Shown in pieces: positions 14,032 to 15,694 of a stretch of DNA of 64,000 bases (position 1 is its first letter; each line of letters opens with the position of its first letter). The position numbers were made by a program, and so were the translations under genes. Below the pieces are notes generated by a model that saw only the letters and a list, made by a program, of their open reading frames with translations, did not search any database and had not been told where the DNA came from. The DNA comes from an uncultured Microcoleus sp. (GTDB taxonomy: Bacteria; Cyanobacteriota; Cyanobacteriia; Cyanobacteriales; Coleofasciculaceae): the NCBI GenBank assembly GCA_964588805.1, contig CAZPRJ010000002.1, forward strand, positions 71,586-135,585, read 5' to 3'.

Positions 14032-14589
14032 TTATTGCTGCTTTAAAAGTGGTAATAGCCGTTGCAATTCTCCACAAGCTGCCTGAAGTGATGCGGGTGC
14101 GTCTTCTGGTAAGTTCTGAGAACGGCATTGCTCTGCCAGGTTCTTAACATAGGGCTTGCAAGTAGAATCCTTCTCAAATTTTGAATACCCTGTCTCTTCA
14201 TCAACAAGTTCTCCCTGTAAGTAGTGTATCCAAGTCTCAATATTTCGTTTAGGAATGAAGATAGCGATCGCTTCGTTGGGTTGACGATTTGGCTGGGTAT
14301 CTTCACTAAGGGATTGAGCTAACTGATTAAGTCGTTCTTGCAAAGTACCCGTATCTGCATCAATCAAAACAACCAATCCAATGGACAGACTGTTTCTCTT
14401 CTGGCGATATGCTTTTACTTCTTCTGCATACTTAGTGCGTACATATTGCTCTCCTGACTGGCTACCTTGGGGACAAATTTTAGGTCGGAATAAACCTGTA
14501 AAACCTCGCTTTTCTAGAAAATAACGAGCAAAAACTTCTTGCTGTCGATCTTCACAGAGGATAACAATCTGAACTCTACGCTGACTCAT
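14032..14589 (-). CDS. DUF4276-like / TOPRIM-like small protein, partner of the upstream ATPase
   Basis: 185 aa; N-terminal acidic motif VILCEDRQQE and LVVLIDADTG reminiscent of TOPRIM/DUF4276; overlaps the ATPase stop by 14 bp. Confidence 0.5.
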   Translation of the reverse strand: MSQRRVQIVILCEDRQQEVFARYFLEKRGFTGLFRPKICPQGSQSGEQYVRTKYAEEVKAYRQKRNSLSIGLVVLIDADTGTLQERLNQLAQSLSEDTQPNRQPNEAIAIFIPKRNIETWIHYLQGELVDEETGYSKFEKDSTCKPYVKNLAEQCRSQNLPEDAPASLQAACGELQRLLPLLKQQ

Positions 14590-15694
14590 TCAACCATCCC
14601 CGTGCAATCAGTTCAGAAACGGGTAAACCAGAATTATCAGCTACTTCGCTGCTAATTCGTTTGATTCGGACAGGAGCATTACTTTGACGCTCAAACCAAT
14701 AGCCAATTGGTGAAGCTAAAAGGTAGTTGATTAACTCAGGATGATGAGAAATCAGTAACGCTTGAATTTGTCCTTCACTACAGAGGTCATAAAGCTGAAT
14801 GAGCCAAGGTTGAATTTCGGGCAAGGCTAGGAAGTTTTCGGGTTCATCAATGCACAACGTATAGTCTTCAGATTTGGTGCCATGAAGAAGCGTGTACAAA
14901 GCCACTAAAGTTTTTTGTCCATCTGACAATTCATCGAAGTGATATTCAATTGGTTTATTGCTCTCTGTTCCTCCAGTAAAACGTAGTTTAAACACTAAAT
15001 TTTTTTCGCTGACTCGTTCAAACTTAAAGCTTGTAAAGCCATCCAAAACATCTCTTAAGATATTACCTATTTCAGCAACCTTGCCTTGATCTTCAGATAG
15101 GTAGCGATACCAAGAAACAAAATTTTCCATATTAATAGCCAAACGCATTTCTTCGTGGCTACTCTCATCAACCATCAAGCTAGGAATGATTCGCACGATA
15201 ATAAATCGTTTGATCCGTTCCCTAAACCAAGTTAATTTGGTGTTGTCATTCCTTGGCATCAATAAGGGTATGATAGACTGTGACCAGTCAAATGGGTATT
15301 GCGGGCCTAGTGAATGATTGTCTCGATAGAGTTGAACTTCCCCTAATTCAAATTTCAGTAAAGGTTGGTTATCAAACCACAGGCGCTCATACTCAACACG
15401 ACATTTATCCGGCTTGTGACCAATACCCAATTCATATTTATAGCTGCCACTATTACCTAGGATTTCTATCTCAAAGCGTTGAATAGGTGAGGTTTGCCAA
15501 CGAGTGCAGTCTGTAGATTTAAAAATTTCTTCTACTTTACTGTCACCACTGACAAATGCCTGAATTTTTTGTAAAACTTCAAAAACAGTTGATTTGCCTG
15601 ATCCGTTAGAGCCTAAAAATAAATTAATTGAGTCAAGGTCAAGTTCAAAATTCACCAGACAGCGAAAATTATCAATGTAGATATGTTTTAGCAT
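14576..15694 (-). CDS. ABC-type AAA ATPase (AAA_21/AAA_15-like, OLD/RecF-like)
   Basis: Walker A GSNGSGKST at N-terminus, Walker B/D-loop LCIDEPENFLA and LLISHHPE at C-terminus, long helical insert between. Confidence 0.85.
   Translation of the reverse strand: MLKHIYIDNFRCLVNFELDLDSINLFLGSNGSGKSTVFEVLQKIQAFVSGDSKVEEIFKSTDCTRWQTSPIQRFEIEILGNSGSYKYELGIGHKPDKCRVEYERLWFDNQPLLKFELGEVQLYRDNHSLGPQYPFDWSQSIIPLLMPRNDNTKLTWFRERIKRFIIVRIIPSLMVDESSHEEMRLAINMENFVSWYRYLSEDQGKVAEIGNILRDVLDGFTSFKFERVSEKNLVFKLRFTGGTESNKPIEYHFDELSDGQKTLVALYTLLHGTKSEDYTLCIDEPENFLALPEIQPWLIQLYDLCSEGQIQALLISHHPELINYLLASPIGYWFERQSNAPVRIKRISSEVADNSGLPVSELIARGWLNESA

Follow-up and report, generated by a model that had tools for sequence, protein, structure and literature searches.

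In a 64,000-nucleotide stretch of DNA from an uncultured Microcoleus sp., a filamentous cyanobacterium (contig CAZPRJ010000002.1, positions 71,586 to 135,585; hereafter the window), two overlapping genes on the minus strand encode an ABC-type ATPase and a small Toprim-like protein. To which family does this pair belong, and does it act in defence against phages? A sequence-only reading had answered that it is a candidate AbiL-like abortive-infection module, made of an AAA ATPase and a DUF4276/TOPRIM-like protein and preceded by duplicated XRE regulators. From the comparisons reported here, we read the pair as a sister of the split ABC-ATPase/Toprim systems that is only distantly related to them and has not been catalogued. 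The design is itself well known. A defence or conflict role is given a probability of roughly 55%, argued by analogy with those systems.

Few of the immunity pairs that combine an ABC ATPase with a Toprim protein (Old, Gabija, PARIS, AbiL) have a known trigger and target. The family described here is large (1,529 clusters at 50% identity), is widespread in bloom- and mat-forming cyanobacteria and passes no Pfam model. It appears to be unstudied, unless it is the 'unnamed two-gene system in Nostoc sp.' to which PMC10802264 refers.

An overlapping pair of conserved genes

The claimed pair of open reading frames (ORFs) and its 14-bp overlap were confirmed (Table 1), and the two peptides that had been quoted from the small protein, IVILCEDRQQE and LVVLIDADTG, were located at residues 8-18 and 72-81. 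At the junction, ...GGGGATGGTTGAATGAGTCAGCGTAG, the small gene starts at an ATG set among the final codons of the ATPase gene, and about 9 nt 5' of this ATG is a stretch rich in purines. This arrangement fits translational coupling. The stretch holding the promoter match upstream of the ATPase gene is about 93% identical to that of an Allocoleopsis locus (L005) without a helix-turn-helix (HTH) gene. On JGI metagenome contigs the small protein is identical and so is the gene order.

The ATPase scored above the Pfam gathering thresholds of AAA_21 (68.6 bits against 27) and AAA_15 (52.8 against 32.1). It carries a Walker A motif (GSNGSGKS, residues 28-35), an ABC signature (LSDGQ, 256-260), a Walker B motif (TLCIDEPE, 279-286) and an H-loop (ISHH, 315-318). 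In an alignment of 23 diverse homologues, extending down to 44% identity, the residues G28, N30-G31, G33-K34, S257, G259-Q260, D283-E284 and H317-H318 were invariant, as were S360 and R365-G366-W367 in the C-terminal tail. Judged from these residues, the catalytic motifs are all intact. The earlier label of AAA ATPase holds in so far as an AAA_21-like domain passes its threshold, but the enzyme is of the ABC type and not an AAA+ protein, whatever the Pfam names suggest.

Among the PADLOC models, the ATPase was matched best by PDC-M25A (E 3e-23, 80.5 bits), AriA (7e-21), HEC-01A (3e-20) and AbiLi (1.7e-17). These matches mark out a family neighbourhood and not an identification. Of the solved structures, Thermus scotoductus OLD, a class 1 nuclease (6p74_A), is the closest by sequence. 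Placement in the RecF family, which the sequence-only reading had named as a finding that would count against it, did not occur: the recF model (TIGR00611) gave 32 bits against a cut-off of 172 and covered residues 2-41 only.

The family of the small protein returned 876 matches in a set of 5.8 billion proteins, and clustering at 50% gave the 1,529 representatives; nearly all members lack a Pfam domain and carry the name 'hypothetical protein'. In an alignment of 123 diverse representatives, no variation was seen at E13, D77 or W120, while C12, D14, D79, P113, I117-E118-T119 and others were at least 90% conserved. The same alignment yielded an AlphaFold2 (AF2) model with a mean confidence (pLDDT) of 95.9, superseding an earlier and poor run with 32 close homologues (pLDDT 65). 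The predicted order of elements is β1 (7-12)-α-β2 (33-38)-α-β3 (70-75)-α-β4 (108-111)-α, followed by a helical C-terminal part.

The signature of the Toprim superfamily, to which DUF4276 and RloB belong, is a conserved Glu where strand 1 ends or in the β1-α1 loop, together with a DxD motif after strand 3 (PMC12065111). In the model, E13 directly follows the strand at 7-12 and D77-x-D79 directly follows the strand at 70-75, which together constitute this signature. The structure prediction that had been proposed as a check thus points to a protein that is Toprim-like in fold and motif pattern, and the lack of such a fold, named beforehand as a sign against the claim, was not observed. Searches with individual family members gave weak matches to DUF3226 (22 of the 123 representatives), DUF4276 (12 of 123, E up to 0.01), RloB (2 of 123) and the PADLOC model HEC-01B (43 of 123, best E 2.9e-8). 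Solved Toprim domains form a three-layer α/β fold around a four-stranded parallel sheet in the order 2-1-3-4, an arrangement that the predicted strands and helices may take up. Foldseek returned nothing significant in either the PDB or BFVD, and the family profile gave a chance match only when run against all PDB sequences.

To trace the pair, one genome per species was scanned in a collection of 185,579 species; relatives were found in 233 of them, and the best 80 loci were inspected. All of these 80 are cyanobacterial, the closest being labelled Allocoleopsis, Stenomitos and Coleofasciculus. An ATPase gene lies directly upstream of the small gene in about 75 of the 80, usually again with an overlap of 14 nt. 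Distant members (44-56% identity, one of them in a metagenome-assembled genome of the Deltaproteobacteria) keep the pairing, with an overlap of 4-8 nt or a gap of 5 nt. Retention in 233 species, with the ATPase adjacent at nearly all inspected loci, is far beyond chance. Against three close relatives, the ratio of nonsynonymous to synonymous substitution rates (dN/dS) came to 0.10-0.15 in the ATPase gene and to 0.13-0.17 in the small gene. Both genes are therefore real, nearly always paired and under purifying selection.

Over positions 14022-15703, the synonymous rate dS relative to loci L005 and L006 was 0.32-0.40 in the small gene and 0.15-0.19 in the ATPase gene, a difference of about two-fold. 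Recombination within the pair could account for this gap.

Relation to known ATPase/Toprim systems

Models from PADLOC, Pfam and NCBIfam were used as tests of membership. For the small protein, the Pfam DUF4276 model (PF14103) gave 17.6 bits against a gathering score of 30.2, with an E-value of 0.0046 over 68 residues; a protein from Hormoscilla (locus L063), taken as a positive control, scored 162.7 bits. Alignment of the family profile to two real DUF4276 proteins with hhalign gave a probability of 5% over 23 columns, confined to the segment of strand 1 and helix 1. The motifs at the presumed active site also differ, being CED, IDAD and NIETW in the small protein and EGxTEE and HEFE in DUF4276. 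The HMMER comparison with Pfam that had been suggested for the pair thus places AAA_21 above its threshold and DUF4276 below, and the claimed DUF4276 membership was not borne out.

In architecture, AbiL (AbiLi/AbiLii) and the Campylobacter RloAB system are like the pair: each is a two-gene operon for an ABC ATPase and a small Toprim/OLD-like protein of the RloB type (PMC13064643, PMC10802264). Nevertheless, membership in AbiL failed as well. The PADLOC AbiLii models gave no match to the small protein at E-values up to 0.1, and no RloB-type match was obtained for it. The AbiLi match to the ATPase is generic; its 61.5 bits cover profile positions 49-250 of 326 only, and three other ATPase families match more strongly.

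The nearest catalogued candidate is HEC-01, which PADLOC lists as a candidate system and which comprises an ABC ATPase (HEC-01A) and a TOPRIM/DUF4276 protein (HEC-01B) (Payne et al., bioRxiv 10.1101/2024.01.29.577857). Like the pair studied here, it has an ABC ATPase of about 370 residues followed by a Toprim-like protein of about 200. The HEC-01A model aligned to the window's ATPase over its full length (70.6 bits), and a HEC-01 ATPase aligned directly with it, again over the full length, at 25% identity (E 2e-9). HEC-01B reached 16.8 bits with the small protein (E 0.0011) over 62 of its 218 profile positions, short of a membership call. Real HEC-01 pairs, found at loci L063 and L083, scored 450-514 bits with HEC-01A and 239-264 bits with HEC-01B. 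Scores so far below those of real HEC-01 pairs, the 5% hhalign probability and the full-length ATPase alignment indicate that the pair is related to HEC-01 as a distant sister and does not belong to it. The suggested PADLOC search returned weak matches of the HEC-01 and AbiLi types but no convincing match for the pair, so that current annotation probably misses the family.

PARIS is composed of the ABC ATPase AriA and the DUF4435 Toprim nuclease AriB, and has been proposed as class 4 of the OLD family. It shares with the pair the placement of the ATPase and the Toprim effector on separate, adjacent genes. AriA differs from the 372-residue ATPase in being a 55-kDa protein with coiled-coil insertions (PMC11464382) that forms hexamers, and AriB, at about 35 kDa, is larger than the 185-residue small protein. 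Neither DUF4435 in Pfam nor AriB in PADLOC matched the small protein. One AriA model (PDLC02980, length 304) hit the same residues and profile positions of the ATPase as Pfam AAA_21 does; the other covered the first 46 residues only. By these comparisons the pair falls outside PARIS. Its small protein, moreover, was not found on phage, satellite or viral contigs.

In OLD classes 1-3 the ATPase and Toprim parts form a single polypeptide, whereas here, and in nearly all relatives, they are encoded by two ORFs. The pair looks like an OLD nuclease divided over two genes. Its two proteins point independently to the Thermus scotoductus enzyme, although the resemblance to class 1 OLD proteins (6p74; P2 Old) is remote and Foldseek did not recover it. 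The RecF/RecR system offers a further parallel, in that an ABC ATPase of about 370 residues works with a Toprim-domain protein of about 200; this likeness is an analogy only, and neither RecR nor Toprim_4 in Pfam matched the pair.

An ATPase of the AAA_15/21 type is also combined with a DUF4276-type Toprim domain within the MADS (Mad3/Mad4) and Menshen (NsnB/NsnC-DUF4276) defence systems (PMC12065111). The NCBIfam model antiphage_MADS3 gave 40.2 bits against a cut-off of 420, over ATPase residues 1-60 only, and the PADLOC mad4 model matched with an E-value of 0.02, which does not place the pair in MADS. No methylase or other partner gene of the MADS or Menshen type was found beside the pair in the window.

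Genomic setting and possible roles

The favoured reading is that of a defence or conflict module. The pair would be a split OLD-like module expressed from one transcript and translated via the 14-nt gene overlap. Glu13, Asp77-x-Asp79 and probably Glu118 of the small protein would bind a divalent metal, and nucleic acid would be cut. On the model of PARIS, P2 Old and Gabija, the ATPase would hold or gate the nuclease and free or activate it on a phage or invader trigger, and growth or infection would be halted once tRNA or DNA had been cleaved.

Pairs of an ABC ATPase with a Toprim protein are recurrent defence modules (PMC11464382, PMC10568477, PMC10802264). In PARIS, AriA sequesters AriB and frees it when a phage protein is bound, and AriB cleaves tRNA (PMC11464382, PMC10802264, PMC12409363). 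The literature on OLD and Gabija also underlies the proposed mechanism (PMC10568477, PMC7049728). It is by analogy only that we infer that the two proteins form a physical complex, that the small one is a nuclease, what it cuts and what triggers it, and that there is an anti-phage phenotype, abortive infection included. If the pair does defend against cyanophages, it would be a common, compact system in a phylum with few validated defences, and the 185-residue protein a minimal Toprim effector.

The neighbours of the pair differ by lineage. About 30 Microcoleus-type genomes have an ABC-F gene 5' of it. Its place in about 20 Nostocales species is between a P-type ATPase gene and a gene for a MerR-CbiC fusion (an HTH domain joined to precorrin-8X methylmutase), which is on the same strand and begins 7 nt past the small gene (L048-L082, ~8550-9680). 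In Allocoleopsis it is found between a GUN4/TPR gene and topA, and in Hormoscilla (L063) it begins 5 nt beyond a precorrin methylase gene, itself preceded by cbiX. The repeated link to cobalamin genes may reflect synteny by descent, or it may be meaningful.

A few of the neighbours were HEC-01, Uma2 or AAA_14/DUF4143 genes, and PIN and Fic genes stood in two contigs that were looked up. The real HEC-01 pairs (an AAA_21 ATPase with a DUF4276 protein) lie directly after the pair in Hormoscilla L063 (8744-10544) and about 5 kb away in L083 (13144-14867). At these two loci, two paralogous ATPase/Toprim modules are clustered.

Several observations weigh against a defence role. Sequence conservation is high, at 60-95% identity across orders, and the position of the pair is stable within Microcoleus and within Nostocales. 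Most of the 147 neighbour ORFs, from about 30 distinct contexts, are housekeeping genes (ABC-F, P-type ATPase, MerR-CbiC, topA, tRNA synthetase), so that the family context looks housekeeping. Homologues of the small protein were absent from PLSDB plasmids, INPHARED phages and IMG/VR viral contigs. Two plasmid matches of the ATPase are paralogues of about 30% identity, and the one whose context was read has no Toprim partner annotated beside it. Such housekeeping neighbours, stable positions, high conservation and absence from plasmid and phage sets are atypical of defence genes with fast turnover; judged by its context, the family is less like a typical hot-spot defence gene than like a chromosomal accessory module that has been kept for a long time. 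In addition, no protection was seen when HEC-01 was tested in E. coli (bioRxiv 10.1101/2024.01.29.577857), and Cran1, an archaeal ATPase of the OLD family, works in the cell cycle and not in defence (PMC12796447).

These same observations lend some weight to a cellular, non-immune role, in which the targets of an ATPase/Toprim complex would be cellular DNA or RNA, and its task repair, the restart of replication, chromosome handling or the processing of RNA. Strong purifying selection, the fixed synteny in Microcoleus and Nostocales, the housekeeping neighbours, the absence of the small protein from the mobile and viral collections, the Cran1 precedent, the RecF/RecR analogy and the lack of defence by HEC-01 would all agree with it. 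Against this, the distribution is patchy (233 of 185,579 species) and the pair is no core cyanobacterial gene. Its position differs by lineage and is here on a recent insertion that breaks an operon; HEC-01 pairs and toxin-antitoxin or Fic-type genes occur as occasional neighbours; and the RecF and RecR models failed. A cellular role is on balance rather unlikely, but if true it would make the pair the second OLD-type cellular machine after Cran1. One form of it, in which a split OLD-type complex has been domesticated for a cellular task in filamentous cyanobacteria as a bacterial counterpart of Cran1, would explain the conservation, the fixed genus-wide positions, the absence from phages and plasmids and the MerR-CbiC link in about 20 Nostocales; so specific a version is a distinctly long shot.

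As an addiction module, the pair would have a toxin in its Toprim protein, neutralised by the ATPase, and would stabilize the DNA segment that carries it without any sensing of phages. This is suggested by the gene order and tight coupling, by the translocated island flanked by repeats, by the XRE-type regulators upstream in some lineages, and by PARIS, which formally behaves as a type II toxin-antitoxin system (PMC10802264, PMC13064643). The fixed chromosomal site in most genomes, with no mobile-element genes nearby, and an island without an integrase or transposase make it a doubtful choice. The original filing as an AbiL-like abortive-infection module, with the small protein in DUF4276 and the duplicated XRE genes as regulators, draws on the same overall logic as AbiL (PMC13064643), on the AbiLi match of the ATPase and on the weak DUF4276 match. 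With DUF4276 below its threshold, hhalign at 5%, no match to AbiLii, a partial AbiLi match ranking below PDC-M25A, AriA and HEC-01A, and XRE genes absent at most loci, this filing is very improbable and, as a claim of membership, largely refuted.

The island in the znu operon and other features

The pair sits on an inserted island, as had been claimed, and this island lies between znuC and znuB. In six related metagenome contigs (ZnuB 78-86% identical) znuA-znuC-znuB are contiguous with a znuC-znuB gap of 11-37 bp, compared with 4,875 bp in the window. The coordinates of the island and of its features are collected in Table 1. The insertion splits the zinc-transporter operon (ABC-3/ZnuA type; 11875-12723 and 17599-19644, minus strand). 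With 4.9 kb between it and znuC, znuB would have to be transcribed from a promoter of its own. No integrase or transposase was found in the island, and Rfam gave no RNA element in or near it.

Table 1. Positions in the window of the gene pair and of the features around it
Feature	Position	Strand	Remarks
znuB	11875..12723	-	left flank of island
Inserted island, 4,875 bp	12724..17598		between znuC and znuB; GC 0.37-0.42, flanks 0.45-0.51
Dispersed repeat, left copy	12795..12877	+	about 100 nt, 13-nt inverted ends; znuB end of island
Intrinsic-terminator-like hairpin	13383..13403	-	about 630 nt 3' of small gene, within 12878..14021
Small Toprim-like protein gene	14032..14589	-	185 aa, ATG start (ORF list); putative metal-dependent nuclease effector; motifs, AF2 model, dN/dS
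ATPase/small-gene overlap	14576..14589	-	14 nt; small-gene ATG within ATPase 3' end
ABC-type ATPase gene	14576..15694	-	372 aa, ATG start (ORF list); Pfam AAA_15/AAA_21 type, OLD-like head; Pfam, motifs, dN/dS
Sigma-70-like promoter match	15730..15758	-	TTGATG, 17 nt, GATAAT; about 35 nt 5' of ATPase start
GUN4/TPR gene relic	15823..16008	-	3' end, last 63 codons, 186 nt; 87% protein identity to Allocoleopsis L005
Tandem repeat, 270-bp unit	16008..16589		two copies 84% identical and a 42-nt start of a third; one XRE/HTH_3 gene per full unit
XRE-family HTH gene, copy 2	16064..16318	-	84 aa as listed, but more likely starting at an ATG 5 codons further in; lineage-specific
XRE-family HTH gene, copy 1	16334..16606	-	90 aa; lineage-specific
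208-aa gene	16823..17449	+	182 aa in JGI call; divergent from HTH genes; dN/dS 0.18-0.25
Dispersed repeat, right copy	17456..17580	+	same orientation as left copy; znuC end; inverted ends ACAGGACTTACGA ... GCGTAAGTCCTGT
znuC	17599..18363	-	right flank of island

Comparison of the island with related loci resolved it into blocks. The pair with its promoter region (14022..15703) is common to all compared relatives. Just 5' of the ATPase promoter region lies the relic of a GUN4/TPR gene, which the tandem HTH array joins exactly at 16008. This relic shows that the cassette came from a site of the GUN4-pair-topA type and moved into the znu operon. The locus thus records cassette movement, the segment having carried a piece of a former neighbour gene into a zinc-transporter operon. 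On the other side, the stretch 12878..14021 (about 1.3 kb) has no counterpart in loci L004-L007, L009, L010 or L013. A plus-strand ORF of 132 aa has a dN/dS of 0.71 and lies antisense to both the GUN4 relic and the HTH repeat; it was rejected as spurious.

The two repeat copies near the island ends were considered as att sites or target duplications, and this was rejected given the native znuC-znuB junction of 11-37 bp and the occurrence of more copies in the window (at about 2359-2404 and 38250-38313). These additional copies indicate that the repeat is a dispersed element. With its inverted ends (ACAGGACTTACG...GCGTAAGTCCTGT), it resembles a miniature transposable element.

The duplication of the XRE genes is real, but their inclusion in the system was not supported by the comparison. 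Upstream sequence was sufficient at 77 loci. HTH genes upstream of the pair were confined to the contigs of the window itself, L004 (two copies), L006 (one), L093 and L094. At the last two, an unrelated HTH_3 gene (4517-4792 in L093, 1319-1594 in L094) lies directly upstream and overlaps the ATPase gene call, next to a family member of 56% identity. An XRE-type regulator has here been recruited to the pair a second time and independently. Presence in so few loci, together with the conserved promoter-like region that the ATPase gene has of its own, marks the XRE genes as accessory.

With the 208-aa gene, the XRE genes make up a block of about 1.4 kb (16009..17450) that is common only to L004 and L006, where its junctions differ. 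The block is separate from the core pair and is possibly a local regulator. The 208-aa gene is real and under purifying selection. No match to its protein was found in Pfam, NCBIfam, PADLOC, PHROGs or the PDB.

Other features of the window were recorded alongside. At 9007-11667 (plus strand) lies a gene for an 886-aa homologue of the major vault protein, to which the JGI annotation of this contig assigns Vault repeats and MVP shoulder domains. Among bacteria, such vault proteins are uncommon. On the JGI contig a serpin gene follows it, and maps just upstream of position 9007 of the window. A cobalamin riboswitch was found at 2467-2615 (plus strand, 58.6 bits), with a partial copy of the dispersed repeat about 60 nt upstream, and the nitrogen-stress small RNA NsiR4 at 53581-53649 (plus strand, 45.2 bits).

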